The notes under the pieces were generated by a model that saw nothing but the letters and a program-made list of their open reading frames with translations, did no database searches and had not been told where the DNA came from. The translations under genes and the position numbers were made by a program. A stretch of 64,000 bases of DNA from a virus. The stretch spans positions 1 to 64,000 of the IMG/VR virus record IMGVR_UViG_3300034152_000814. One strand, written 5' to 3'. Shown piece by piece: positions 3,076-53,340 of this stretch. Positions within the stretch are counted from its first letter, which is position 1. Each line of letters starts with the position of its first letter.

Positions 3076-3344
3076 AGCAACGACGAGTACGTGAACCCGC
3101 CGTCCGACCCGACGCGGAGAAGCGGGAACGCATCAAGGAAGCCGTTCGACGCGTCGCCCGGAAGCGCCGGCTCGAGGTTCCGATCCGCTTCGCGGACCCC
3201 GGCCTGCCGGACACGACCTGGATCCTCGAGCTTGACCAGCTCGGGCTGAGGGCCCGGAAGAAGGGCTCCCGCAAGAATACCGCCGTGCGGGCGTCGTGGA
3301 AGTCGATCATCGGCGGGATGCTGATAGCTAACGGGGGAGGGTAA
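3072..3344 (+). CDS. hypothetical basic protein
   Basis: ATGA overlap coupling; Arg/Lys-rich. Confidence 0.4.
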   Translation: MKQRRVREPAVRPDAEKRERIKEAVRRVARKRRLEVPIRFADPGLPDTTWILELDQLGLRARKKGSRKNTAVRASWKSIIGGMLIANGGG

Positions 3345-3381
3345 TGCCTAAGTACCAATACGTCGGCACCGACGAGGGACG

Positions 3382-4635
3382 GTGGAAATGAAGCGTCCGA
3401 AGGTCATAAGCCTTTTTACGGGCGCCGGGGGCTTGGATCTCGGCCTTGAAGCTGCCGGATTTGAGTTGGCTGTCGGGGTAGAATTTGACCCCGAAGCAGT
3501 CGCTACCCTCCGCGCAAATCGGAACTGGCCGATTATTGACCGCGACATACACGAGGTTCCGACCAAGGAGCTGCTCGAGGTCGCGGGGCTTCGCGAGGGC
3601 GAAGCCGATCTCCTCGCTGGTGGGCCGCCCTGTCAGCCCTTCAGTAAATCGGGCTATTGGGCCAGTGGCGACGCCGGCAGACTCGAGGACCCGAGAGCGA
3701 CAACTCTTGAGGCGTTCCTTCGAGTGCTGAGGGACACCAAGCCGAAGGTCTTCTTACTTGAGAATGTCTCTGGGCTTGCATACCGAAACAAGAATGAAGG
3801 CCTGGAGCTTCTCCGAACTACGATTGACGAAATCAACGAGGCCGCCGGCACCGCATACTCGTTCCAATCTTCGGTAATCAACACCGTAGAGTATGGTGTA
3901 CCGCAGGAGAGGGAGCGGTTCTTGGTAATAGGCCACAGAGACGGCGCCTGTTTTGAGTTTCCTAAACCAACTCACACGAAGCCCAAGAAGCAGCGAGGAA
4001 CTCGCCGGAGTTCCTCGGAAGACAAAGATCTCGAGCCGTTTCACACGGCTTGGGACGCGATTGGCGACCTTCAGGAGGACGGCAGCGCCGAGTTGAGAAT
4101 GACTGGCAAGTGGGCAGACCTTTTGCCCTCAATTCCCGAGGGCGAGAACTATCTCTACCACACTGACCGGGGCGCAGGCCTTCCGCTTTTTGGTTGGCGG
4201 AGAAGATATTGGAGTTTTCTTCTCAAGCTATCCAAGCGTCTCCCGTCTTGGACCATAACTGCTCAGCCAGGCTCAGCCATAGGGCCCTTTCATTGGAAGA
4301 ACCGACGTATCTCCATGAAGGAGCTATGCAGGCTTCAGACGTTCCCCGACGACTACGAGATCCTTGGTGGCCGCACCTCCTATCAAAAGCAACTTGGCAA
4401 CGCTGTCCCGGCTGCTTTAGCAGAGAAGCTTGGGCTGGAGATTCGTAAAATGCTTGGTCACGACGTGCGCCGCAGAAAGCTCAAGCTCCTGCCGGCTCGT
4501 CGAACGCCTGTGCCTCCGGCAGAACGCTCTCGAAAGGTTCCACAGAAGTACATGGAGCTTGTCGGCGAACACGAGGCACACCCAGGAACAGGTAAAGGAT
4601 ATGGGGCATTAGCCAGAACTCAAAACCAAAGCTGA
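3382..4635 (+). CDS. dcm: DNA cytosine-5 methyltransferase
   Basis: C5-MTase motifs I FTGAGGLDLG, IV PPCQPFS, ENV, QLGNAVP; lower GC than neighbouring genes. Confidence 0.9.
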   Translation: MEMKRPKVISLFTGAGGLDLGLEAAGFELAVGVEFDPEAVATLRANRNWPIIDRDIHEVPTKELLEVAGLREGEADLLAGGPPCQPFSKSGYWASGDAGRLEDPRATTLEAFLRVLRDTKPKVFLLENVSGLAYRNKNEGLELLRTTIDEINEAAGTAYSFQSSVINTVEYGVPQERERFLVIGHRDGACFEFPKPTHTKPKKQRGTRRSSSEDKDLEPFHTAWDAIGDLQEDGSAELRMTGKWADLLPSIPEGENYLYHTDRGAGLPLFGWRRRYWSFLLKLSKRLPSWTITAQPGSAIGPFHWKNRRISMKELCRLQTFPDDYEILGGRTSYQKQLGNAVPAALAEKLGLEIRKMLGHDVRRRKLKLLPARRTPVPPAERSRKVPQKYMELVGEHEAHPGTGKGYGALARTQNQS

Positions 4636-4716
4636 GACGGGTTCATGGCGTCAAGGAAGCGCACCAAGTCGTTCCCCAAGAAGAAGGACCGGAAACGGGC
4701 GCGCAAGCGCGAGCTC

Positions 4717-4750
4717 GTGCTTGACGCTACGTCAATCCGTGGTATACTTC
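4717..4750 (+). promoter_or_regulatory. sigma70-like promoter TTGACG-16-TATACT
   Basis: near-consensus hexamers upstream of gene 4835; same CTTGACG -35 flavour as the cassette family. Confidence 0.4.
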
Positions 4751-4834
4751 TACTGGAAAGGGGTCCCGGTTGGTACCCACCCAACCCCCTTTCACACAAC
4801 ACCGACCGGGGCCCCGTATTGAAGGGAGACCGAG

Positions 4835-5398
4835 ATGGAAGTTGAAACTTTCGAGATCGAGGAGGCCGTCGGCGAGGCGCTCGGGACCACGCCGGAGATC
4901 GAGGCCGAGGCCCTGGAGCTCATCGAATCGCTGGGACTCGAGGGGCAGAGCAAGCTCGTCGTCAGGAACGAGGAGACCGGCGACGACGAAAGGATCCCCT
5001 ACCCCGAGATGACGAAGGCCGAGGTCGAGACATACCAGGCCCGCTTCCCGGTCTCGGATAAGGTGGAGAACTACTCGATGGGGATCATCCCCGTCCGCGT
5101 CCTCCAGGTCGTCGGGCACGCGCGCGGGATCTTCGAGGAGGTCTACGTCTGGCACGACCGGGTGCGCGACCCCGACCCGATCCTCGTCGGGAAGTCCGAC
5201 AAGGTGTACTACCTCCTCGCGAGGTGGGGCGACGCGCTCAAGAGCTTCGCGGAGGTCAAGGTGGAGGCCGCGACGAAGTTGCGGGAGGACTGGGAGCGGA
5301 AACTGAAGGCGAAGATCGGGGAGTGCCAGTCCTTCCTCGCCTCGCTGGACGCGAAGGTCGAGGAGAAACTGGCCGGCGAGTGGGTGTTCCTGCCATGA
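4835..5398 (+). CDS. hypothetical protein (187 aa)
   Basis: RBS gaagggagaccgag; acidic N-terminus. Confidence 0.55.
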   Translation: MEVETFEIEEAVGEALGTTPEIEAEALELIESLGLEGQSKLVVRNEETGDDERIPYPEMTKAEVETYQARFPVSDKVENYSMGIIPVRVLQVVGHARGIFEEVYVWHDRVRDPDPILVGKSDKVYYLLARWGDALKSFAEVKVEAATKLREDWERKLKAKIGECQSFLASLDAKVEEKLAGEWVFLP

Positions 5399-7386: not shown

Positions 7387-7566
7387 ATGATCTGGATAGC
7401 CCTCGTACTCGCGGCGATCGCCGTTTGGGTCGCGCTGCGGGGCCTCCGGCACGAGGTCCGGTGCCACGACCGAATCCTCTCGGGCAGGGTGCGCCGGCTG
7501 GAGCGGGCGCTCCGGCTGCACGCCGAGGGGCGACCGCTGCTCGCGGAGGAAGAATGCGACGACTGA
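7387..7566 (+). CDS. small membrane protein
   Basis: TM helix IWIALVLAAIAVWVAL. Confidence 0.35.
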   Translation: MIWIALVLAAIAVWVALRGLRHEVRCHDRILSGRVRRLERALRLHAEGRPLLAEEECDD

Positions 7567-7811
7567 ACGCCACGCAACTACGGGAGATGCGGGAAACCCA
7601 CGAGTTCCTCTGGATCAGCGAGCTCGCCGAGATGCTCGAAGCCTCCCCGCACGTGGTCCGGCGGCTCGCCCACGCCGGCAGGCTGCCCGCGGTGAAGCTG
7701 CCGAACGGCACGATCCGGATCCACTACCGACGGGGGGAGGACCCGAGGGGGTTCGGCGCGGACGTCGAGCTGTGGAGCCGTCCGAAGAAAAGAGTTGACA
7801 AGGGCGACTGA
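7554..7811 (+). CDS. excisionase/MerR-like HTH DNA-binding protein
   Basis: ISELAEMLEASPHVVRRLAHAGRLPAVKLPNGTIRI helix-turn-helix. Confidence 0.6.
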   Translation: MRRLNATQLREMRETHEFLWISELAEMLEASPHVVRRLAHAGRLPAVKLPNGTIRIHYRRGEDPRGFGADVELWSRPKKRVDKGD

Positions 7812-7869
7812 GAACGGTACCGTGGAATCGACATGATAACCCGAGCTCATAGAACGTCGATGCAGGGAG

Positions 7870-7901
7870 CCCGAGGGGGCGCACAACCCTCGGGCGTTTT
7901 C
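7870..7901 (+). terminator. rho-independent terminator
   Basis: CCCGAGGG-9nt-CCCTCGGG followed by CGTTTTC. Confidence 0.6.
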
Positions 7902-7993
7902 ATGTCGCAAGCTCAATTCCCAATTGAGCTTACTTCGTCACTGGGCGTTTTCATGTCGCAAGCTCAATTCCCAATTGAGCTTACTTCGTCACT
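7892..7993. repeat. two tandem 51-bp direct repeats, each with palindrome GCTCAATTcccAATTGAGC
   Basis: exact repeat read directly from the sequence; period 51. Confidence 0.9.
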
Positions 7994-8335
7994 TTACGCT
8001 TCGTAAAAGCGAAGAGCGGGATAGCCCCTTATCCCGCAAGGGTTTACTTCACTCACTTCACACACTTTACCGTTTCAAATCGCCAGGAAGTACGTGACGA
8101 TATGCTCACGCACTTCCTGGTAACTTTTTTATATAAAGTGTGTGAAGTGTGTGAAGTAAGTATATACAGTAGTTATAGTTATCTCTCTCTTTACTATAAA
8201 GTAAAGTAAAGTAACGAAGTAAATATAAGGGGTGTATGTAGTTAGCGCCCACTTCTATTTTAGCAGGAAGTTAGGTCTCTTACCGTCGGAAGCTCGAACT
8301 CGCACTTCCGGGCTCCGGTGCGGTAGAATCGAGGC

Positions 8336-8530
8336 ATGGCGCGGATATGGTCGGCTCACCGCTGCGACCGCTGCGGGCTGACGGGCCTGGCGGTCGGCGA
8401 CGCGGCGCTGCCCCCGGGCTGGGAGGCGGCTGCCGTGGGCGACGCGCGCCGCGACCTCTGCGCGAACTGCGCGGCGAAGGTCTCGCGGGCGTTGACCGAT
8501 CCGCCAAGTACTGGTACAATAACCATCTAA
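8336..8530 (+). CDS. small Cys-containing protein
   Basis: CDRCG ... CANC pairs. Confidence 0.4.
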   Translation: MARIWSAHRCDRCGLTGLAVGDAALPPGWEAAAVGDARRDLCANCAAKVSRALTDPPSTGTITI

Positions 8531-8558
8531 GGCGTGACGCCGACGCGAGGAGACCGAG

Positions 8559-9017
8559 ATGGCGGCTCGTAGCATACTGGCCAAGAAGAAGTTAGAGACC
8601 TTCCTGAAGTCCCTGGCATTCACCGGGGAGAAGATCAACTCGGCCGACGCGGCGGGGATCCCTTGGAGCACGCTGGAGAAGCGGATCGCGCGCGACCCGG
8701 GTCTGAGGGGCCGAGTCGACGAGGCGATGTCCCGCTTCCACGAGAGGATCGAGAGCACGGTGCGCGGCCGGGGGATCGAGGGTTGGGAGGAGCCGGTCTT
8801 CTGGCAGGGCGAGGTCGTGGGGCACGTTCGGAAGTACTCGGACCGGTGCCTCGAGATGCTGGCGAAGCGCCACATCGCGGAGTACCGGGACAAGATGCGG
8901 ATCGACGCCTCCGTCCAGGGGGGCGTCCTCGTCGTTGGTGGAATGATGGACGAGGACGAGTGGGTCGAGACGTACGGTGGTAAGCAAGCTGACGAAGACG
9001 AAGGGAGTCAGGAATGA
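8559..9017 (+). CDS. putative terminase small subunit / HTH protein
   Basis: 152 aa with acidic C-terminus; position upstream of terL. Confidence 0.45.
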   Translation: MAARSILAKKKLETFLKSLAFTGEKINSADAAGIPWSTLEKRIARDPGLRGRVDEAMSRFHERIESTVRGRGIEGWEEPVFWQGEVVGHVRKYSDRCLEMLAKRHIAEYRDKMRIDASVQGGVLVVGGMMDEDEWVETYGGKQADEDEGSQE

Positions 9018-42322: not shown

Positions 42323-42550
42323 ATGGTAGTAGGATGCAGGGAGCTCTCCGAAGCCTTCGACGACTACCCCGGGTGCTGCGACTCGTGTCACGAGGACGAG
42401 GCCGAGTTCGGGTACGACATGTGCGAAGCCACGATCGGGACCGTCCTCGTGCGGGCGTGCTGCCGCGTCGTGAACTGGATCCACGGCACGGAGAGGGCCT
42501 GGGAGCAGGAGATCCTTGATTATGTCAACGCCAACCGAGAAGATCTGTAG
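42323..42550 (+). CDS. Cys-rich small protein
   Basis: GCCDSCHED ... CCRVV. Confidence 0.45.
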   Translation: MVVGCRELSEAFDDYPGCCDSCHEDEAEFGYDMCEATIGTVLVRACCRVVNWIHGTERAWEQEILDYVNANREDL

Positions 42551-43046
42551 GTCCACCGATTACTTCACGCCGCCGCGTATCCTGGATCCGGTGAGGGAGT
42601 ACTTCGGGGGTCGCATCGATCTCGACCCCGCCACGACGTGGGAGAATCCGACCGGCGCGAGGCGCATCCATACGCCCGCCAATTCCGGGCTCGACGCCCA
42701 GTGGATCCCCTACCGCGTCTTCGTCAATCCCCCGTACGGCAGGGTCCTCCGGCGATGGGTGGGGAAGATCTACGAGGAGTCCCGGAAGGGCTGCGAGATC
42801 GTCGCCCTCCTGCCCGGGCAGCGGTTCGAACAGAAGTATTGGCAGGTCGAGGTCTTCAACCCTACCTTGATCGGGTTCTGTATGGTACGGAAGCGCGTCT
42901 CGTTCCTGCGACCCGACGGGACGGTAGCCAAGGGGAACCCGTACGGTAGCTTCGTCTATCTGTATAATGGGGATTTCACGCGGTTCGAGAAGGCGTTCTC
43001 CGAGGTCGGACTCTGCATCCGGATCGACTACGACGATGAGATTTAA
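42522..43046 (+). CDS. phage Dam-type N6-adenine DNA methyltransferase (T1 Dam-like)
   Basis: DYFTPPRILDPVREYFGGRIDLDPA and VFVNPPYG. Confidence 0.8.
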   Translation: MSTPTEKICRSTDYFTPPRILDPVREYFGGRIDLDPATTWENPTGARRIHTPANSGLDAQWIPYRVFVNPPYGRVLRRWVGKIYEESRKGCEIVALLPGQRFEQKYWQVEVFNPTLIGFCMVRKRVSFLRPDGTVAKGNPYGSFVYLYNGDFTRFEKAFSEVGLCIRIDYDDEI

Positions 43047-44508
43047 GACCGAACCCTTCGCACACCAGCGCGAGGAGTGGGATCTCAGCCGGGACTTCGA
43101 GACGCGCGCGTTGTTCTGGGAGATGGGCACCGGGAAGTCCAAGACCACGATCGACACCGCCGCGCACCTCTACGAGACCGGCAAGATCGACGCCTTCCTC
43201 GTCGTGGCTCCCAACGGCGTCCACACGAACTGGGTGAACGACGAGCTACCGGCGCACATGCCCAACGAGGTCCCGTTGCGGGCCTTCGCGTACTCCTCGA
43301 AGCGAGCGAAGACGAAGAAGCACCAGCGCGCGATAGACGCCGTGCTCCACCACGACGGGCTCGCCTTCCTCGGCATGTCCTATAGCGGGATTATGACGAA
43401 GGCGGGTCGGGCGTTCGCCAGGAAGTTCCTCGAGCGGCGGAAGGTCTTCTACGTTCTCGACGAGAGCCAGCGAATCAAGACGCCCGGCGCCAAGCGGACG
43501 AAGGCGCTGATCGCCTCGGGCAAGCTGGCGACCCACAAGCGGATCCTCACAGGGACGCCGATCACCAAGAACCCATTCGACGTCTACACGCAGCTCCGGT
43601 TCCTGGACGCCGATTTCTGGAAGGCGCACGGCTTCGCGTCGTTCCAGGCGTTCAAGACTCATTTCGGGATCTGGCAGGAGCGGATCAACGGCGCCACGGG
43701 GCAGCGGTTCCCGGACCTCGTCGCCTTCCGGGACCTGCCGCGGCTCAAGGAGATCGTGGGAACCATCGCGTCGAGGATCACGAAGGACGAGGTCCTCGAC
43801 CTGCCGCCGAAGCTCTACTCGAAGCGGTACTTCGACCTGAGCTCGGAGCAGGCGCGCCTCTACCGGGAACTCCGCGACGAGTACATCACGTTCCTCGGTT
43901 CCGGTGAGATGGTGACCGCTCCCATGGCGATCACCCGCCTCCTACGGCTCCAGCAGGTGCTATGCGGCTACCTGCCCGGGGACGACTCCGATCGCCTGAC
44001 GCTCCTCGACGAGAATCCTCGCCTCGATCTGCTCCGCGAGATCGTGAACGACCTGGACAAGGCGGCCATCATCTGGGCCCGGTTCCGGCAGGACGTGGAC
44101 CAGATATGCGGACTGCTCGGGGATCGGTGCGTCCGGTACGACGGCAAGGTCGGCGAGGACGACCGGGAACTCGCGAAGCGGCGCTTCCAGGGAGGCGACG
44201 TCCAGTTCTTCGTCGGTAATCCCGCGGCGGCGGCTACCGGACTCACGCTGCACGCGGCGAGCACCGCGATCTACTACTCGAACTCGTTCGACCTGGAGCA
44301 CCGCCTCCAGTCGGAGGACCGGAACCACCGGATCGGGCAGGACGGCGAGATCATCACGGTGGACGAGGACGGGAACCCCGTTGTGGGCGTGAGCTACATC
44401 GACGTCCTCGCCCACGGGACCGTCGGGCCCTACATCGTGCGGGCCCTCCGGAACAAGAGGAACGTCGCCGCGGAGATCACGGGGGACGAGCTTGCATCCT
44501 GGCTCTGA
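43036..44508 (+). CDS. SNF2-family helicase
   Basis: Walker A MGTGKSKT, DESQRIKT, helicase-C RNHRIGQ. Confidence 0.85.
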   Translation: MRFKTEPFAHQREEWDLSRDFETRALFWEMGTGKSKTTIDTAAHLYETGKIDAFLVVAPNGVHTNWVNDELPAHMPNEVPLRAFAYSSKRAKTKKHQRAIDAVLHHDGLAFLGMSYSGIMTKAGRAFARKFLERRKVFYVLDESQRIKTPGAKRTKALIASGKLATHKRILTGTPITKNPFDVYTQLRFLDADFWKAHGFASFQAFKTHFGIWQERINGATGQRFPDLVAFRDLPRLKEIVGTIASRITKDEVLDLPPKLYSKRYFDLSSEQARLYRELRDEYITFLGSGEMVTAPMAITRLLRLQQVLCGYLPGDDSDRLTLLDENPRLDLLREIVNDLDKAAIIWARFRQDVDQICGLLGDRCVRYDGKVGEDDRELAKRRFQGGDVQFFVGNPAAAATGLTLHAASTAIYYSNSFDLEHRLQSEDRNHRIGQDGEIITVDEDGNPVVGVSYIDVLAHGTVGPYIVRALRNKRNVAAEITGDELASWL

Positions 44509-44530
44509 CGTGGTACAATGGTGGCGTGGA

Positions 44531-45109
44531 ATGACGGTTGAGGTCGCAACTCCGGAGGCTGGAATGGATTACGGTGAAGATAGCAGGACCCCCACCAACG
44601 AGGAAACCGGCAACCTTTTCGCCCTCGTCAAGGAGCTCGTCACGATGGACGTGGAGATCGCGGACCTCGAGGAGCAGCTCAAGGAAGCGAAGCGCGTCCG
44701 CAAGGAGCTCGCCGAGGAGCGGATCCCAGCGGTGATGGAGGACGTCGGGATGGAGGTCGGTGAGGGGATCTCGCTGAAGGACGGGCGCTGGCTCCTGTTG
44801 GAGGAGGCCGTTCACACGAGCATCACGAAGGCGAACCAGGCGGCGGCGTTCAAGTGGCTCGACGAGAACGGGCACGGCGGCATGATCAAGCGCGCCGTCG
44901 TGGTCTCCTTCAACCGGGACCAGGAGGAGGAGGCCCGGGAGCTTCAGAATTCGATCCGGAACTCGTACCCCGGCGTGAAGGAGGAGGGACGGATCGAATC
45001 GTCGACCCTCAAGGCGTGGGGCCGGCAGATGCACGACGAAGAGGTCGAGCTTCCGCCGAGCATATCGGTCCATGCCCAGAAGGTCGCGAAGATCAAGAAG
45101 AACCGATAA
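44531..45109 (+). CDS. coiled-coil hypothetical protein
   Basis: 192 aa; Glu/Lys-rich. Confidence 0.5.
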   Translation: MTVEVATPEAGMDYGEDSRTPTNEETGNLFALVKELVTMDVEIADLEEQLKEAKRVRKELAEERIPAVMEDVGMEVGEGISLKDGRWLLLEEAVHTSITKANQAAAFKWLDENGHGGMIKRAVVVSFNRDQEEEARELQNSIRNSYPGVKEEGRIESSTLKAWGRQMHDEEVELPPSISVHAQKVAKIKKNR

Positions 45110-45158
45110 CGAGAACGAGCGTACCGAGTATTCAACTTCAACGAGAAAGGAACCAATC

Positions 45159-45971
45159 ATGGCGAAGAAGAAGAACCAGGAAGTCGCAACCACGGAGCCG
45201 AAGGACGTCGTGAAGTTCGACTACGGCGAGGATGCCGGGCTGGGGTACGAGGGACAGACGGCTCAGGACCTCACGATCCCGTTCCTCGTCCTGCTCCAGT
45301 CGCAGTCGAAGCAGGTCGTCGGCGATCCCGGGGAGAAGGTCGAGGGCGCCGAGGCCGGCAAGTTCCTCAAGGCGGACACGGACGACGTCATCGACGGCCG
45401 GATCGACGTCGTGATCTCGCTCTTCGAGCACTGCTTCGTGGAGTGGATCCCCAGGAACCAGGGAGGCGGACTCGTCGGGCGACACGGGCTCCACGACCCG
45501 ATCATCACGGAGGCGAAGGCCAACGCGGAGCGGTTCGGGGAGTACAAGCACCCGAAGACCGGGAACGACCTCGTCGAGACGTACTACGCGTTCGGCGTGC
45601 TCGCCGCGACGGCCGAGCCGATCGTCCTTGCCTTCACGTCCATGAAGATCAAGCCGTTCCGCACGTGGAACACGGCGATCAACAAGGTGACGTACAAGGA
45701 TCAGCAGGGGAACAAGAGGAAGCCCCCTCGGTTCGCCTTCCTGTCCACCCTGTCCGCGGTGCCCGACAAGGCGCAGGGCTACAATTTCTTCAACGTGAAG
45801 CTGGAGCCCACGAAGAACGCGATCGACAGTATGCTCGATCCAAGCGATCCGCGCTACCAGGCTGCGAAGGCGGTCTACGACGCGTACACCGCCGGCAACG
45901 TCAAGATCGACGAGGAGCAGCAGGCTTCCCGATCCTCCGCGGGTGACGACGACGGCGACGGAGTATTCTGA
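45159..45971 (+). CDS. hypothetical protein with SSB-like acidic C-terminal tail
   Basis: ends GDDDGDGVF; RBS gagaaaggaa. Confidence 0.5.
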   Translation: MAKKKNQEVATTEPKDVVKFDYGEDAGLGYEGQTAQDLTIPFLVLLQSQSKQVVGDPGEKVEGAEAGKFLKADTDDVIDGRIDVVISLFEHCFVEWIPRNQGGGLVGRHGLHDPIITEAKANAERFGEYKHPKTGNDLVETYYAFGVLAATAEPIVLAFTSMKIKPFRTWNTAINKVTYKDQQGNKRKPPRFAFLSTLSAVPDKAQGYNFFNVKLEPTKNAIDSMLDPSDPRYQAAKAVYDAYTAGNVKIDEEQQASRSSAGDDDGDGVF

Positions 45972-46014
45972 CACCCAATTCCCAAGCGAGGCGGCCTGAC
46001 CCACCGCCTATACG

Positions 46015-46038
46015 CCCGGGGGGTGCGCACCCCCCGGG
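46015..46038. repeat. perfect 24-bp palindrome CCCGGGGGGTGC|GCACCCCCCGGG
   Basis: read directly; sits at the boundary of the AT-richer island. Confidence 0.9.
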
Positions 46039-46057
46039 CCCCTTCCTTGAAAGGATA

Positions 46058-46873
46058 GTGATGCGCTCATTCTTCCGGTACCCTGGAGGTAAAGCGAAGC
46101 TGTACGCGCCGATTGCCGCCGCACTTCGGCGCGTGGCTCCTGTCGCCACACGATACGTTGAGCCGTTCTTCGGTGGTGGGAGCATCGGTATTCGCTTCCT
46201 GACAGAAGCGCCGGGAATTGTGTCGGCGGAGCTCAACGATCGGAACGACGCGCTTATCGCACTCTGGCGAAGCGTTCAGAAGTTCCCGAACGCCCTGAAC
46301 CGATGCATAACAGATTTCGTACCGACCCCGGACGCTTTCTATGAAATACGGGAAATTCTTCTCGATGTTGAGCGGCGTCAGTCCATTCCGTTGGTTCGTC
46401 GAGGTTTCTTCGAGCTGGTAATCCACCAAATATCATATTCCGGCCTCGGTGTGAAGTCCGGTAGCCCGCTTGGGGGGCGGGCGCAGGCGTCCAAGTACAA
46501 GATCGATTGCCGGTGGTCCCCGGACTACCTATGCCGACGGATACACGAGCTCCATCAGCTATTCAACTCGCTGCGCGTGGTGTTCACGTCTCAACATTTT
46601 AGCGCGTGCCTCCCGACCAGTCCGGATTCGGTTACGTACTTGGATCCCCCCTACTACCATCGCGGTAATGATCTGTATCAATTCGGTTTCACCCAAATGG
46701 ACCACGAGGAACTCGCCGCCCTCCTTCGACGTGGACCTAACTGGGTCCTATCGTACGATGACTGTGAAGAGATCCGTGATCTCTATTCATGGGCGAAAAT
46801 CGAGGAACTCGAGACGAACTACTCCATCACGACGGCACGTCGCCGTAGAGAAATCTTAATCACATGGCGATAA
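46058..46873 (+). CDS. D12-class (Dam-like) N6-adenine DNA methyltransferase
   Basis: YPGGK, EPFFGGGS, DPPYY motifs; AT-richer than the flanks. Confidence 0.85.
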   Translation: MMRSFFRYPGGKAKLYAPIAAALRRVAPVATRYVEPFFGGGSIGIRFLTEAPGIVSAELNDRNDALIALWRSVQKFPNALNRCITDFVPTPDAFYEIREILLDVERRQSIPLVRRGFFELVIHQISYSGLGVKSGSPLGGRAQASKYKIDCRWSPDYLCRRIHELHQLFNSLRVVFTSQHFSACLPTSPDSVTYLDPPYYHRGNDLYQFGFTQMDHEELAALLRRGPNWVLSYDDCEEIRDLYSWAKIEELETNYSITTARRRREILITWR

Positions 46874-47391
46874 GAGTCACAATATGTCCGGAAGACTACG
46901 CACGATGCGCAGAGTACGCGGAGACGTGCATGTGCGCTAAGAAACGTGGAACTACGTTCAACGAGGGATGCATCAACAACTCACAAGATCCGTACCGGGC
47001 GCAGCGGATTGGGAAGCTCGGGGAAACTGCTTTCGGGCGTCACTTCGGTTACCCCGTTGATTATAAGTATAGGCGATTCGGCGATCGGCAGGATTTTATC
47101 GTTGGAAAGAAACGCGTCGACGTGAAGACATCATCGTATTCTCGCGCGTCTGTCGTTTTCCTGCGCGTCCGTCACTCGAGCGGATCCCCCATCCTGATTC
47201 GGCACGACGTGTATGTCCTCGCACGGCTCGTACACGAGGACCGAGAAGCTCAACAAGCGGTGGTGGATCTTTGCGGTTATTGTACCCGGGAGGACGTCGA
47301 GCGCCTCCCAGAGGTTCCAGCACGGCGTGGACATCACGTCAATATCGAGATACCCTTCAAGGGGCTCCGAAAATTCAGGGAAGAACGATGA
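46864..47391 (+). CDS. candidate PD-(D/E)XK nuclease
   Basis: GETAF ... QDFIVG ... VDVKT spacing fits E / D / (D/E)xK; overlaps the MTase stop. Confidence 0.45.
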   Translation: MAIRVTICPEDYARCAEYAETCMCAKKRGTTFNEGCINNSQDPYRAQRIGKLGETAFGRHFGYPVDYKYRRFGDRQDFIVGKKRVDVKTSSYSRASVVFLRVRHSSGSPILIRHDVYVLARLVHEDREAQQAVVDLCGYCTREDVERLPEVPARRGHHVNIEIPFKGLRKFREER

Positions 47392-48581
47392 ACTGGTCCC
47401 CCCAGCAACGACGAGCCCTCGACGCCGCCGGCGCGTGGCTCCGGAACGGCGACAGGCAGGTCTTCCGCCTGTTCGGGTACGCCGGCACCGGGAAGACCAC
47501 GCTCGCGAAGCGCCTCGCGGAGGGGGTGGGCAAGGTCCTCTTCGCGGCGTACACCGGCAAAGCGGCGCTCGTCATGCGCCGGGCGGGCTGTCCCTGCGCG
47601 TCGACCCTCCACTCCCTGATCTACCGACCGAAGGAGAAGAGCCGGGCGCGGCTGATTGAGTTGGTAGCGATCCAGCGGGAGCTCGAGGCGAGCGACAGCC
47701 CGGACGACGCGGAGCCCTTGCGCCGGATCACCGGGGAGATCGAGGCCGAGCGGAAGCGCGTACGGGAGCCCGGCTGGGATCTGAACCCGGACAGCGCGCT
47801 CCGGGACGCCGACCTCCTCGTGATCGACGAATGCTCGATGGTCGGTGAGCGGATGGCCCGAGACCTGCTGAGCTTCGGGACGCCGATCCTCGTGCTCGGG
47901 GACCCCGCCCAGCTCCCACCGGTGAGGGGGACGGGATTCTTCACGGACGCCAAGCCCGACGCGATGCTGACCGAGATTCACCGTCAAGCCGCGGACAACC
48001 CGATCATCGAGCTCGCGACGTGTGCCCGCGAGGGGCACGAACTGCGTCCAGGATCTCACGGTGATAGCCTCGTGATCCCGCGGGCGGAGTTCGACAAGAG
48101 TACGATCGAGCGGGACACCCAGATCCTCGTCGGTCGGAACAGGACCCGACGGAAGGGTAACGAATTCCGGCGAAAATCGCTTGGTTTCGGGCACGAGCTG
48201 CCCGAGGCGGGGGATCGACTCGTCTGCCTGCGAAACAACCACGACCTCGGGCTCCTCAACGGCGCGATCTGGTACGTGGAGGATGCGATCGACGAGAACT
48301 GCGACACGGTGGACCTTCGCGTCTCGAACGAGGACGACGGCGACGAGCTCGTCGTGCCGGTCCACGTGGCTCCCTTCCGCGGGGAGGAGCCCCCGCCGTG
48401 GAGCTGGCGGGACGCGGAGCTCTTCGATTACGGCTACGCGATCACCGTCCATAAATCGCAGGGATCCCAGTGGCCGGAGGTCTGCCTCGTCGACGAGAGC
48501 GCGTGCTTCCGGAAGGACAGGTGGAGGCACCTCTACACGGGCATCACGCGGGCAGCGGAGAAGGTGACGGTAGTGATATGA
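47388..48581 (+). CDS. Dda/RecD-like SF1 helicase
   Basis: GYAGTGKTT, LLVIDECSM, AITVHKSQGSQW. Confidence 0.85.
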   Translation: MNWSPQQRRALDAAGAWLRNGDRQVFRLFGYAGTGKTTLAKRLAEGVGKVLFAAYTGKAALVMRRAGCPCASTLHSLIYRPKEKSRARLIELVAIQRELEASDSPDDAEPLRRITGEIEAERKRVREPGWDLNPDSALRDADLLVIDECSMVGERMARDLLSFGTPILVLGDPAQLPPVRGTGFFTDAKPDAMLTEIHRQAADNPIIELATCAREGHELRPGSHGDSLVIPRAEFDKSTIERDTQILVGRNRTRRKGNEFRRKSLGFGHELPEAGDRLVCLRNNHDLGLLNGAIWYVEDAIDENCDTVDLRVSNEDDGDELVVPVHVAPFRGEEPPPWSWRDAELFDYGYAITVHKSQGSQWPEVCLVDESACFRKDRWRHLYTGITRAAEKVTVVI

Positions 48582-49153
48582 AATTCAAATTGATTTACGC
48601 TGATCCCCCCTGGCAATACCGTAATTCTCAAAAATCCAAGAAATTCAGTGGAACCGCCGCGTCGGCTTACGAGACACATTCCGATTCCGATATTAGTGCA
48701 TGGGATGTCGGCTCCATTGCCGATGCGAATTCGTTGTTGTTCCTATGGGCGACGTTCCCGAAGATGCCGGAGGCCCTCTCCGTCATGGCGGCGTGGGGCT
48801 TCAAATTCGTGACCGCCCCTTTCGTCTGGAACAAGACGTACGCGAGCGGGAAACCGTTCTGCGGTGTAGGTTTCTGGACCCGAAACGCCGCGGAGGTCGT
48901 GCTCCTCGGGCGACGTGGAAAAGGTCTGCCGCGAATCGCACGCGGCATCCGACAGGTCGTGACGGCGCCAGTGGAGAGACCCCACAGCACTAAGCCAGCG
49001 ATCGTACGAAGCCGGATTATAGAGCTCGTCGGCGATGTACGACCACGGATCGAATTATTCGCGCGACAGGAGACGGAGGACTGGTATGCGACGGGACTTG
49101 AGCTCGATGGACGCCTCCTCACGGACGCGATCCAATACTACACCGCTCTATGA
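48578..49153 (+). CDS. MT-A70 family N6-adenine DNA methyltransferase (paralogue of gene 44..586)
   Basis: YADPPWQY; PRIELFARQ; ATGA coupling. Confidence 0.85.
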   Translation: MKFKLIYADPPWQYRNSQKSKKFSGTAASAYETHSDSDISAWDVGSIADANSLLFLWATFPKMPEALSVMAAWGFKFVTAPFVWNKTYASGKPFCGVGFWTRNAAEVVLLGRRGKGLPRIARGIRQVVTAPVERPHSTKPAIVRSRIIELVGDVRPRIELFARQETEDWYATGLELDGRLLTDAIQYYTAL

Positions 49154-49200
49154 TTTCGGGGGGCAGTATGTCTTCGGTGAGCGTGGGGAAGAACTGTTAG

Positions 49201-49580
49201 TGAACCGCTTCGGCTGGACACGAATTGGCCGCCGCGGTTCGGATCTCGTGACCCGTACTGGGATCCGTGTCGAGCTCAGGACGGATTCCCGTGCGAGTAC
49301 GGAAACTGGAAATTTTTTCATTGAACGATATTCGGACATCGCGCGTCGTACGCCTGGGGGACCCTGGAAAGCGAAACGGGACGAATCTACTGGTTTCCTG
49401 TACCTTTTCTGGCCGGACCGGATCCTGTATGAATTCAGAACGGACCTCGTTATCGAGCGGATGGAGAAGCTCATCCCGTTTCTCCAACGACGACGAGTTC
49501 GTAACGCACGATATTTTACCGGCGGTTACCTGGTTCCAATTCCGAAACCTGAGGATTTAGCAGTAGTAACAGAATTATGA
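49201..49580 (+). CDS. hypothetical protein (GTG start uncertain)
   Basis: frame open from 49150 but no ATG; AT-richer. Confidence 0.3.
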
Positions 49581-51126: not shown

Positions 51127-51527
51127 AGTTTGACGAGTTCAAGCCGCGGATGGAGCTCCTTCCCTGGGAGGCGCTCGAGTTCGTGGCGTGGGTTCTCACG
51201 TACGGCGCCGAGAAGTACGACGATGACAACTGGCGCGACCTCCCCAACGCCGAGAAGCGGCTCATGGGAGCCGCGCTCAGGCACATCGCGAAGGACCAGG
51301 CGGGGAAGCGCCTCAACACGGACGAACGGGACCTCCCTCACCTCGCGCAGGCGGCATGCAACATCTTGATGTTGCTATGGTTCCGTCGAGACGATTACCC
51401 GAGGGGGTATAATTTCAAGGGGGTCCGGGAGGAGTTCGAGGAGCAACGCAGGAAGGCGCAGGATGGAATGGATACAGGAACCGATGTTCGACCCCCCGTC
51501 GGATTGGACGGCGACGCCGGTTCGTGA
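51123..51527 (+). CDS. dATP/dGTP pyrophosphohydrolase N-terminal-domain-like protein
   Basis: ELLPWEALEFVAWVLTYGAEKYDDDNWRD. Confidence 0.45.
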   Translation: MKFDEFKPRMELLPWEALEFVAWVLTYGAEKYDDDNWRDLPNAEKRLMGAALRHIAKDQAGKRLNTDERDLPHLAQAACNILMLLWFRRDDYPRGYNFKGVREEFEEQRRKAQDGMDTGTDVRPPVGLDGDAGS

Positions 51528-53340
51528 CCTCCCGTCCTGGGGGGACGCGAAGCGCGTCGCGATCGACTGCGAGACGAGGGATCCGCAACTGAGGACGCTC
51601 GGGCCCGGCGTGCGCAGGGACGGGCGGATCGTCGGGATCTCGTTCGCGATCGAGGACGGACCGGCGCACTACCTCCCGATCCGACACGCCTCCGGCGGCA
51701 ACCTACCGGAGGAGCACGTCCTATCGTACTTGCGCGACCAGGCGGCCGTCTTCCGTGGGGACGTCGTCGGTGCGAACCTGCCGTACGACTTAGATTTCCT
51801 CGCGGAGGAGGGGATCTGGTTCGGCGCGTGCCGCTCCTTCCGGGACGTCCAGGTCGCGGAACCCCTCCTCGACGAGCTCCAGCTCTCATACTCCCTGGAC
51901 AACATCGCCGCGCGGCACGGGATCCCCGGTAAGGCGGAGGAGGGGCTCGTCGAGGCCGCGCGCGCGTGGGGGCTGGACCCGAAGGCGGAGCTCTGGAAGC
52001 TGCCGGCGCGGCACGTGGCGCCCTACGCGATCCAGGACGTGCGGCTCCCCCTGGCGCTCCTGCGGCGCCAGGAGCGTCGCATAGACGAGGAGAGCCTCTG
52101 GGACGTCTACAACCTCGAGAGCCGCGTCCTCCCGATCCTCGTGAAGATGCGGCGCCGCGGCGTCCGCGTCGACCTGGACCAACTCGACCGGATCGAGGAA
52201 TGGACCGAGGAGCAGGAGGCGGAGGCGCTCGACGTGGTGTATACCAAAACTGGTATACGGATCGAGCTCGGCGACGTCTGGCGACCTGAGCCCATCGCCC
52301 GGGCGCTCGAGGCCATCGGGGTCCGAGTTCCGAAGACCAAGACCGGCAAGCCCTCCACGAAGGCGGACGTCGTCAACGCGATCGACCACGACGCCGCGCG
52401 CGCGATCTCCCGGGCTCGCCGCATGAATAAAGTTAGAACGACGTTCGTGCAATCGATCCGGGACCACGCGATCGGCGACCGCATCCATTGCACGTTCAAC
52501 CAGCTACGTGCGCAGAAGGAGGCGGGACAGATCCTCGGCGCGGCGTACGGTCGGCTCAGCTCCATCGACCCGAACATGCAGCAGCAGCCCGCGCGCGACA
52601 AGGAGCTCGGGCCCATGTGGCGGTCGATCTACCTGCCCGAGGAGGGGGCGTCCTGGGGGGCGCTGGACTACTCGCAGCAGGAACCCCGGATGACGGTCCA
52701 CTACGCCGTCCGAACGGGCTGCACGCGGGCGGAGGAGGCGGCGTACGCTTACCGGACGGACCCGTCGACCGACAACCACCAGATGATGGCCGACCTCGCG
52801 GGGATCGAGCGGAAGGCCGCGAAGACGATCTTCCTCGGGCTCTGCTACGGCATGGGTGGCGGGAAACTCTGCCGATCCCTCGGGCTCCCCACGAGGGAAA
52901 CAACCATCCGGGGGCGCCGCGTCGAGGTGGCGGGCCCGGAGGGGGAGGCGCTCTTAGCGAAGTTCGACCTCCAGGTCCCGTTCGTCCGGGAGCTCGCCCG
53001 GAAGGCGAGCCTGCGCGCCGCGCGGAGGGGCTACATCACCACCCTCTCGGGCCGTCGGTGCCGCTTCCCGCGAACCCCCACCGGGCAGTACGACTGGACC
53101 CACAAGGCGTTGAACCGCCTGATACAGGGGAGCTCCGCCGACCAGACGAAGACGGCGATGGTCGCTATGGACGCCGCCGGCTGGGAGCTCCAGCTCCAGA
53201 TCCACGACGAGATGGACCTCTCCGTCGAGAGCCGGGAACAGGCGGAGGAGGCGGCGGAGATCATGCGGACGTGCATCGAGCTCGAGGTACCGTCGAAGGT
53301 CGACGTGGAGATCGGTCCGAGCTGGGGGGAGGCGAAGTGA
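51463..53340 (+). CDS. family A DNA polymerase with 3'-5' exonuclease domain
   Basis: VAIDCETRD exo I; DYSQQEPRM motif A; KTIFLGLCYGMG motif B; QIHDEMDL motif C. Confidence 0.9.
   Translation: MEWIQEPMFDPPSDWTATPVRDLPSWGDAKRVAIDCETRDPQLRTLGPGVRRDGRIVGISFAIEDGPAHYLPIRHASGGNLPEEHVLSYLRDQAAVFRGDVVGANLPYDLDFLAEEGIWFGACRSFRDVQVAEPLLDELQLSYSLDNIAARHGIPGKAEEGLVEAARAWGLDPKAELWKLPARHVAPYAIQDVRLPLALLRRQERRIDEESLWDVYNLESRVLPILVKMRRRGVRVDLDQLDRIEEWTEEQEAEALDVVYTKTGIRIELGDVWRPEPIARALEAIGVRVPKTKTGKPSTKADVVNAIDHDAARAISRARRMNKVRTTFVQSIRDHAIGDRIHCTFNQLRAQKEAGQILGAAYGRLSSIDPNMQQQPARDKELGPMWRSIYLPEEGASWGALDYSQQEPRMTVHYAVRTGCTRAEEAAYAYRTDPSTDNHQMMADLAGIERKAAKTIFLGLCYGMGGGKLCRSLGLPTRETTIRGRRVEVAGPEGEALLAKFDLQVPFVRELARKASLRAARRGYITTLSGRRCRFPRTPTGQYDWTHKALNRLIQGSSADQTKTAMVAMDAAGWELQLQIHDEMDLSVESREQAEEAAEIMRTCIELEVPSKVDVEIGPSWGEAK

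Follow-up and report, generated by a model that had tools for sequence, protein, structure and literature searches.

The 64-kb window analysed here (positions 1 to 64,000 of IMG/VR record IMGVR_UViG_3300034152_000814) represents the bulk of a tailed-phage genome of high GC content (64.7%), which blastn places near the Mesyanzhinovviridae (Bordetella phage FP1; Pseudomonas phages PaMx11, Ab20 and ZC01). We focus on two overlapping genes of this phage, which encode a D12-class DNA methyltransferase and a protein of 175 amino acids named ORF2 (ORF, open reading frame) and which together constitute cassette 1. They are followed by the gene of a Dda-like helicase and by a second pair of genes, cassette 2, encoding an MT-A70-family methyltransferase and another small protein, ORF5. 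Coordinates of the locus are positions in the window, and all features of the 46014-49580 interval are on the + strand:

46014-46039, + strand: perfect 26-bp palindrome forming a GC-rich hairpin with 13-bp arms (sequence GCCCGGGGGGTGCGCACCCCCCGGGC), located 3' of the gp34-like gene
46046-46060, + strand: ribosome-binding region (TTGAAAGGATAGTG), similar to the region 5' of Dda in relatives
46061-46873, + strand: D12-class (alpha-class) DNA amino-methyltransferase with FGGG and DPPY motifs, methyltransferase (M) component of cassette 1
46864-47391, + strand: ORF2, predicted minimal PD-(D/E)XK endonuclease-fold protein of 175 amino acids, candidate restriction (R) component of cassette 1
47388-48581, + strand: Dda-like superfamily 1B (SF1B) helicase (PHROG 325, E 4.3e-100; AAA_30, 82 bits; UvrD_C_2, 60 bits)
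48578-49153, + strand: MT-A70-family DNA methyltransferase (PF05063, E 1.7e-22, 80.6 bits for a cut-off of 23.9; PHROG 359, E 8e-61), first gene of cassette 2
49107-49580, + strand: ORF5, second small, putative PD-(D/E)XK-fold protein of about 157 amino acids, start codon uncertain

The genes of the locus are tightly packed. The methyltransferase gene starts at ATG 46061 behind the Shine-Dalgarno sequence AAAGGA, and ORF2 begins 10 nt inside its 3' end (overlapping sequence ATGGCGATAA); that the two genes overlap was already pointed out in an earlier note on this DNA. The helicase gene shares ATGA overlaps with both its neighbours, ORF2 and the MT-A70 gene, in line with the translational coupling that the same note had proposed for this part of the locus, and the stop codon of ORF5 overlaps the next gene, ORF6, again by ATGA. 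The D12 gene, the 175-residue ORF, the Dda-like gene and the MT-A70 gene are all present where the earlier note had placed them, but the fifth gene at 49107-49580 had been overlooked.

ORF2 contains the motifs GETAF, QDFIV and VDVKT and was not assigned to any family by Pfam, NCBIfam or PADLOC; among PHROGs it weakly matches phrog_13389, which has no assigned function there. Searching 50,697 GenBank phages by tblastn with ORF2 and ORF5 gave no match, a word-index protein search started from ORF2 alone returned only ORF2 itself, and the profile of the ORF2 family found no meaningful match among all PDB sequences. An exhaustive HMMER search revealed the extent of the family: 367 representative clusters at E ≤ 1e-3, 236 of them at E ≤ 1e-10, with lengths of about 160-230 residues. 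Ten positions are invariant in a 40-member alignment (Y12, D42, R48, G50, E54, G73, D77, K88, G138 and N160). In about 50 other loci, all sequences that cover the positions of E54, D77 and K88 retain these three residues, and position 86 is occupied by D, E or N.

The AlphaFold2 model of ORF2, calculated with 29 homologues, has a mean pLDDT (predicted local distance difference test) of 88.7 and a pTM (predicted template modelling score) of 0.86. It displays the alpha-beta-beta-beta-alpha-beta core of the PD-(D/E)XK superfamily with the catalytic E...(P)D...(D/E)xK signature on the expected elements: E54 is carried by helix 45-61, D77 immediately precedes strand 78-80, and strand 83-90 carries D86-x-K88. 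The earlier note had guessed these residues from the three motifs and had called for a structure prediction of this protein; the model confirms a predicted PD-(D/E)XK nuclease fold, from which we infer nuclease activity. Comparison of ORF2 with known enzymes gave scores of 7.7 for NhoI, 7.4 for I-Ssp6803I, 7.1 for DpnI, 6.8 for the N-terminal domain of Eco15I, 5.9 for both Hjc and PvuII, 5.8 for ThaI, 5.6 for MspI, 5.5 for NaeI and 4.3 for MutH, a ranking that leaves the nuclease sub-type unestablished. Foldseek retrieved 56 viral proteins from BFVD at E ≤ 1e-3. Most of them are uncharacterised and come from uncultured phages and pandoraviruses; a few carry the label restriction endonuclease.

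The product of 46061-46873 belongs to the D12 class, as shown by its match to Pfam PF02086 (E 1.2e-19, 71.5 bits for a cut-off of 22). It possesses the S-adenosylmethionine-binding motif I and the catalytic motif IV expected of the methyltransferase of a type II restriction-modification (R-M) system, and its FGGG and DPPY motifs are invariant across orthologues. The earlier note had named it a D12 Dam. The class is correct, but the Dam label is too specific: the protein scores below the cut-offs of both NCBIfam Dam models (75.8 versus 114.85 bits for TIGR00571, 27.6 versus 441 bits for NF008152), and the profile of its subfamily aligns with E. coli Dam over the N-terminal ~100 residues only. 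The best PADLOC model is PD-Lambda-5_B, matched over the full length (E 1.3e-52), followed by type II methyltransferase models, with the orphan-methyltransferase models far behind. The solved structure closest to the subfamily profile is that of M.CbeI (PDB 7M6B; E 1.5e-33, full length). Compared as single sequences, M.CbeI and the window methyltransferase match weakly (57 bits, E 1.4e-14), and neither a modified base nor a target site can be transferred from M.CbeI to the window enzyme. A conserved block specific to the subfamily, HQISYSGLG...GGPLGG..Q.SKYKIDCRW, may constitute its target-recognition region. The framing of the pair as a GATC-directed system of MutH or DpnII type, advanced in the earlier note, is not supported, given these sub-threshold Dam scores and M.CbeI as the nearest solved relative.

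In order to determine how widely the two genes are associated, we examined the neighbourhoods of homologues of both. Seeding with the nuclease yielded 19 loci from IMG/VR, 33 from metagenomes and, in addition, 4 looked-up contigs. A methyltransferase resembling that of the window (phmmer E 1e-48 to 1e-87, 37-58% identity) lies immediately upstream of the nuclease in about 23 of 52 loci, representing about 15 distinct lineages with GC contents of 28-56%. Typically the two genes overlap slightly or are 0-2 nt apart, and locus L055 reproduces the 10-nt overlap geometry of the window. In 185,579 species genomes the sole match to the nuclease family was a contig of a metagenome-assembled genome, with the same methyltransferase-nuclease arrangement; the ORF2 family is thus essentially viral. 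The reciprocal survey, seeded with the methyltransferase, covered 43 viral loci, many of them on very large viral contigs (230-540 kb). The ORF2 family adjoins the methyltransferase in 11 of these, mostly immediately downstream and in 3 cases immediately upstream. In 13 others the immediate neighbour of the methyltransferase is a protein of about 200-230 residues, which we call family B, with a GE...PD...xVKT layout (motif GKxGE...PD...HVKT). An hhalign comparison with the ORF2-family profile (E 2e-4, probability 45%) suggests that family B is probably a divergent sister family. Its loci are the following:

Family B gene downstream of the methyltransferase (12 loci): L066, L068, L069, L071, L075, L080, L084/85, L090-92, L107
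Family B gene upstream of the methyltransferase (1 locus): L100

In one case the two proteins are naturally fused:

L102, 1988-3286: one 432-residue ORF on a 65-kb viral contig, with the nuclease at residues 16-165 and the D12 methyltransferase at residues 172-430

On a neighbour-joining tree, methyltransferase-linked members are distributed over the whole ORF2 family and unlinked ones are confined to a few clades, which suggests an ancestral linkage with several later losses. Identity to the window proteins is 29-38% for the nuclease and 37-58% for the methyltransferase, showing that the nuclease diverges faster, and the pairwise identities of the two partners are correlated (Pearson 0.69, Spearman 0.32). 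R-M pairs usually leave such a signature in genomes: conserved adjacency, tight coupling, fusion and rapid evolution of the nuclease partner. The ORF2 nuclease appears to be largely tied to the D12 methyltransferase, and the functional pair proposed in the earlier note is strongly backed by the natural fusion and by the conserved side-by-side position of the two genes on many unrelated viral contigs.

The neighbourhoods also showed other arrangements. In L058 (2377-4483) the D12 methyltransferase gene is directly preceded by an N6_N4_Mtase gene, which places the pair within a methyltransferase cluster; L065 (3377-5483) has an ORF that matches this gene in size and position only, and in L048 (3574-4701) a C5 methyltransferase is found near the pair. 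In a single lineage represented by L053 (3947-5461) and L098 (3274-4788), the nuclease is fused to a glycosyltransferase-like domain (Glyco_trans_1_2, E 1.6e-10). In L005 (3920-5017) and L014 (5262-5996), which lack the methyltransferase, it is encoded directly downstream of a glycosyltransferase or glycosyltransferase-like gene, the glycosyltransferase family 2 (GT2) match of L014 being below the Pfam cut-off. These arrangements hint, tentatively, at a replacement of the methyltransferase by other DNA-modifying enzymes.

The fusion also bears on the possibility that ORF2 is methylation-directed, in the manner of DpnI or MutH, and cuts or nicks DNA marked or hemi-marked by the neighbouring methyltransferase, either to process replication intermediates or to attack methylated host DNA. 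NhoI and Eco15I, which are among its best structural matches, are modification-dependent enzymes (PMC11347163), and one member of the family weakly matches the Pfam DpnI family (E 0.007). However, with 175 residues and one continuous set of core elements, ORF2 is too short to accommodate the winged-helix reader of DpnI, which does not favour the methylation-dependent nuclease that the earlier note had considered. The match to MutH is weak (4.3), and a phage that methylates itself while producing a nuclease against that mark would destroy its own DNA. Single polypeptides that combine nuclease and methyltransferase (type IIC/IIG) are typically methylation-blocked, and the existence of a fusion therefore points away from a methylation-dependent enzyme. 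Altogether we regard a methylation-directed ORF2 as very improbable.

The base composition of the locus indicates that both cassettes are foreign. The G+C content at third codon positions (GC3) is 0.63 for the D12 methyltransferase, 0.59 for ORF2, 0.88 for Dda, 0.66 for the MT-A70 gene and 0.53 for ORF5, compared to 0.84-0.92 for backbone genes. Since the low-GC3 signal is interrupted at Dda, the helicase is native and lies between two separate imports: two low-GC3 cassettes flank it, in place of the continuous AT-richer island of four genes described earlier. The Dda product has the Walker A/B ATPase core, the UvrD-like C-terminal domain and the family profile of SF1B Dda/RecD-like helicases, and its synteny is common to FP1, PaMx11 and IMG/VR relatives, FP1 and PaMx11 being devoid of both cassettes. 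In these two phages the gene order is helicase, small ORF, gp33-like gene, gp34-like gene, a gap of 73-80 nt, Dda-like helicase and nrdAB. The genes surrounding the locus in the window are:

42967-44508: SNF2-type helicase
44492-45109: Pam3 gp33-like protein (Pfam PF23984)
45072-45971: Pam3 gp34-like protein (Pfam PF23977)
51463-53340: DNA polymerase I-sized ORF, named by position and size alone

Cassette 1 occupies the interval between the gp34-like gene and Dda, behind the 26-bp palindrome; no perfect hairpin in the window is longer. The folding energy of the intergenic RNA is -40.2 kcal/mol (z = -2.9), and none of 200 shuffled sequences was equally stable. The hairpin is followed by the tail CCCTTCCTTG, which is not a U-tract, and is separated by 21 nt from ATG 46061; promoter prediction in these 21 nt did not detect any promoter-like site. 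In FP1 and PaMx11 the corresponding intergenic position is likewise occupied by an equivalent GC-rich hairpin. The hairpin is consequently a backbone element and not the scar of an island, and it does not mark the recombination boundary suggested in the earlier note, which was right about the perfection of the palindrome but gave its length as 24 bp. That note had also proposed a terminator: given that both a promoter-like site and a U-tract are missing, an attenuator or RNA-stabilising element is more likely than a full stop of transcription.

Between hairpin and start codon lies GAAAGGATAGTGATG, a stretch that can be aligned with the ribosome-binding region found 5' of Dda in FP1 and PaMx11. 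The start regions read GAAAGGATAGT-GATG in the window, GAAACGGAGAAT-GATATG in FP1 and GAAATGGAGAAT...ATG in PaMx11. A Dda-type ribosome-binding region now precedes the methyltransferase, which indicates that the left end of cassette 1 was joined exactly at or close to the ancestral start of Dda, whose ribosome-binding site the cassette now uses. The gap between the gp34-like gene and Dda measures 56-80 nt in FP1, PaMx11 and L114. Among syntenic IMG/VR relatives, none of which has cassette 1, it contains unrelated small ORFs and measures 56, 375 or about 930 nt. This gap is a variable cargo slot.

The position of both cassettes beside a helicase raises the question of a role in replication. The small PD-(D/E)XK proteins could be structure-specific nucleases, such as Hjc- or RecU-like resolvases or flap or fork nucleases, that work with phage helicases, their adjacency to methyltransferases being incidental. 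They are located in the replication module and adjoin Dda; members of the family are found elsewhere beside a DEAD-box helicase, and distant members near NinG, ERF, SSB and YqaJ. Hjc and RecU are among the structural matches, but they rank lower (Hjc 5.9) and are outscored by sequence-specific restriction and homing enzymes. Both nuclease genes are moreover compositionally foreign, the closest relatives lack them and replicate all the same, and chance does not explain a conserved adjacency to one methyltransferase subfamily and even fusion with it. We therefore hold such a function to be quite unlikely.

The variable slot and the distribution of the nuclease family would also fit a mobile element. 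ORF2, and perhaps ORF5, could be a free-standing PD-(D/E)XK homing-type endonuclease similar to I-Ssp6803I, an intron-type homing enzyme, and would spread by cutting cassette-free alleles in related phages during co-infection. The methyltransferase would then travel with it as self-protection or cargo, and the pair would be mainly a selfish element and not a weapon against the host. Such an enzyme would account for the patchy spread of the nuclease family over many unrelated phage backbones, typically beside conserved genes of replication or nucleotide metabolism (Dda here; DEAD helicase, ThyX, intein-bearing ribonucleotide reductase and DnaE elsewhere), for its presence in a cargo slot, for low-GC3 genes in a high-GC genome, for the existence of methyltransferase-less lineages and for the likeness of ORF2 to I-Ssp6803I (score 7.4). 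The most suggestive locus interrupts a polymerase gene:

L083, 1-5781: methyltransferase-nuclease pair inside a split DnaE-like gene, the nuclease being fused in frame to the finger/HHH C-terminal part of dnaE

The gene-in-pieces layout of L083 resembles the products of homing endonucleases; the same insert also contains, behind the DnaE N-terminal part, a 240-residue ORF that looks by eye like a DEDD-type exonuclease. However, a homing enzyme does not need a methyltransferase, since insertion destroys its target, and the retention of the methyltransferase in about 15 lineages and in one fusion would be left unexplained. No filled and empty site pair with a recognisable target was found among the relatives sampled. 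We consider a pure homing enzyme unlikely, although more plausible than a resolvase. Homing and R-M are compatible readings, since a pair of R-M genes may itself behave as a selfish mobile unit. Cassette 1 could belong to a previously undescribed class of virus-restricted, self-mobile elements of phages and giant viruses that join R-M and homing behaviour, a proposal that we advance with as little confidence as the homing enzyme. The nuclease of such an element would cleave the genomes of competing or related viruses where they are unmethylated, and the element would afterwards be copied into conserved genes of replication or at their borders, as at the Dda start or in dnaE of L083. Over time fusions would arise from it, to the methyltransferase as in L102 or to the glycosyltransferase-like domain as in L053/L098, along with methyltransferase-less lineages that take on new roles.

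The explanation that we favour, with a confidence somewhat better than even, is that 46061-46873 and 46864-47391 constitute a horizontally acquired methyltransferase-then-nuclease module, a compact type II-like R-M system carried by viruses. The D12 methyltransferase would mark the phage's own DNA at target sites and the translationally coupled PD-(D/E)XK endonuclease would cut unmarked DNA, that of the host chromosome, of co-infecting phages lacking the module, or of both. Both enzymes would thus share one sequence specificity, and cleavage would be blocked by methylation. The phage would be safe, as its incoming DNA would already be methylated and its replicating DNA hemimethylated. By cutting unmarked DNA, the pair would at the same time be a selfish, mobile unit. 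The module landed exactly between the hairpin and ribosome-binding site that follow the gp34-like gene and the start codon of Dda, and is read within one overlapping gene chain. This explanation draws on the conserved linkage and fusion of the two genes, on the PADLOC ranking of the methyltransferase, on the foreign composition and precise insertion of the module, and on the R-M pairs known from other viruses.

Several observations weigh against this R-M module. In about 10 lineages of the nuclease family, no such methyltransferase is found within 4-6 kb, and a restriction enzyme alone should be self-toxic; in the methyltransferase-seeded scan, limited by its search patterns, the contigs of these lineages were absent. 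The acidic residue of (D/E)xK is replaced by N in some members, including methyltransferase-linked ones. Unlike classical R-M systems, the ORF2 family is almost absent from cellular genomes. The presence of five methyltransferases in this phage, four of them in low-GC islets, means that a collecting of methyltransferases as anti-restriction would suffice to explain the D12 enzyme. Finally, the R-M activity of the pair is deduced from genomic evidence.

Cassette 2 represents a second, independent low-GC acquisition on the 3' side of the helicase, again with a methyltransferase and a small, putative PD-(D/E)XK protein. The MT-A70 product contains the DPPW motif and belongs to a family common in phages. 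The homologues sampled in cultured and GenBank phages are solitary: in three neighbourhoods from GenBank phage or virus records, no small PD-(D/E)XK-type partner was found downstream, and one of them has an annotated HNH endonuclease upstream. ORF5 was not assigned to any family by Pfam, NCBIfam or PADLOC. It shows the motif D46...E56-L-R58, whereas its homologues have ELK; this replacement of lysine by arginine suggests that ORF5 may be attenuated or inactive. Only 2-3 homologues were detectable, all from one other phage lineage (L007, L008 and L061), and no methyltransferase is located near them in these loci. The pairing of the MT-A70 methyltransferase with ORF5 is thus unsupported outside this phage. 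We also considered whether ORF2 and ORF5 are paralogues, and rejected this at the sequence level, as the ORF2-family profile misses ORF5, BLASTP gives E 0.077 and hhalign a probability of 8.5%; the two proteins have in common the fold and the motif register alone. The place behind Dda is taken by nrdAB in FP1 and PaMx11, and here by the MT-A70 gene and ORF5, then ORF6. ORF6 matches PaMx11 gp45, which comes after nrdAB in that phage. No ribonucleotide reductase gene is present at the post-Dda position here, the remainder of the window being unscreened for such genes.

Five DNA methyltransferases are encoded in the window, and four of them lie inside low-GC islets. Besides those of the two cassettes, they are:

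44-586: MT-A70 methyltransferase (Pfam E 1e-29) with a very low GC content of 0.42 and a GC3 of 0.36
3382-4635: C5-cytosine methyltransferase (PF00145, E 3e-57), within a low-GC islet
42516-43046: PF05869 'Dam'-family gene with a native GC3 of 0.83, just 5' of the SNF2 helicase gene

Three further low-GC islets were observed, at 1-1100, 3301-4900 and 7601-8700. The last contains two copies of an identical 23-nt hairpin, AAGCTCAATTCCCAATTGAGCTT, at 7909-7931 and 7960-7982, and an HTH_17/MerR-like ORF is located at 7425-7811. Several palindromic words are depleted in the window: CTAG does not occur in the 64 kb, for about 50 expected occurrences, and several 6-bp palindromes show strong depletion, namely CAGCTG (1 observed versus 14.5 expected), AACGTT (0 versus 6), AAGCTT (1 versus 6), AGGCCT (2 versus 10), CTGCAG (2 versus 9.6) and GATATC (2 versus 7). 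GGCC is mildly low, with an observed/expected ratio (O/E) of 0.69. This depletion is consistent with restriction avoidance. The counts of palindromic words in the window did not point to the target of the module, and GATC is not avoided (679 sites, O/E 1.19).

Virus-borne type II R-M systems and PD-(D/E)XK restriction enzymes are already known kinds. What is new is a sizeable, unannotated and almost virus-only nuclease family with its dedicated methyltransferase subfamily, and the finding that this module is accompanied, on the other side of a phage helicase, by a second import that likewise joins a methyltransferase to a putative nuclease. Should the pair be active in restriction and modification, the family would represent a new type II-like family of restriction enzymes, with at least 367 clusters at 50% identity, nearly all on viral genomes. 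It is invisible to Pfam, NCBIfam and PADLOC and detectable only through a weak match to an unannotated PHROG, and it would constitute a source of small enzymes of about 175 residues with possibly new specificities. It would also provide a bacterial-virus counterpart to the R-M systems of chloroviruses and marseilleviruses. More generally, a 'Dam' annotation can conceal an R-M methyltransferase whose base and site need not be those of Dam. The five methyltransferases and two small putative nucleases of this phage, an unusually large set made up mostly of recent imports, point to strong restriction pressure and to competition between phages.

Among known systems, the Dam enzymes of E. coli and T4, which are GATC-specific orphan adenine methyltransferases, share the Pfam D12 superfamily fold and motifs with the window methyltransferase, which differs from them by its scores below the TIGR00571 and NF008152 cut-offs and by its own recognition-region block. 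M.CbeI, part of a CbeI/HaeIII-like R-M system, has the FxGxG and DPPY motifs in common with it; M.CbeI is an alpha-class N4-cytosine methyltransferase, a property that, like its target, is not transferable to the window enzyme. PvuII, the BisI family (NhoI and Eco15I) and I-Ssp6803I share no sequence similarity with ORF2 when its family profile is compared with all PDB sequences. NhoI and Eco15I require 5-methylcytosine and have Q at the acidic position (PMC11347163). DpnI combines a PD-(D/E)XK catalytic domain with a C-terminal winged-helix reader of 6-methyladenine (PMC11347163); ORF2, in which there is no space for a reader domain, is not a DpnI-like type IIM enzyme, nor does it belong to the MutH/Sau3AI family. 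PD-lambda-5, described by Vassallo et al. in 2022, is a compacted prophage system that combines R-M and abortive infection (PMC9519451). It resembles cassette 1 as a two-gene, phage-borne compact module and its B component is matched over the full length (E 1.3e-52), but the partner gene in cassette 1 is of another family: no PADLOC model, including that of the A component, matches ORF2 at E ≤ 1, and with B present and A unmatched cassette 1 is not a PD-lambda-5 system.

Chloroviruses and marseilleviruses carry adjacent M/R pairs that are used against host or competitor DNA, the roles proposed being degradation of host DNA or exclusion of competing viruses (PMC7253447); they are precedents for both of the uses considered here. 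In chlorovirus M.CviAI/R.CviAI and in melbournevirus mel_016/mel_015 the endonuclease has no recognisable domain, and the distribution of the pairs is patchy and clade-wise (PMC7253447). Of the 56 BFVD fold matches of ORF2 at E ≤ 0.001, the 50 that were listed include no chlorovirus or marseillevirus protein. These systems also differ from cassette 1 in that the host of this phage is a high-GC bacterium and in that the target here need not be GATC. By description, they share with cassette 1 an adjoining methyltransferase and small, domain-less endonuclease carried on a viral genome.

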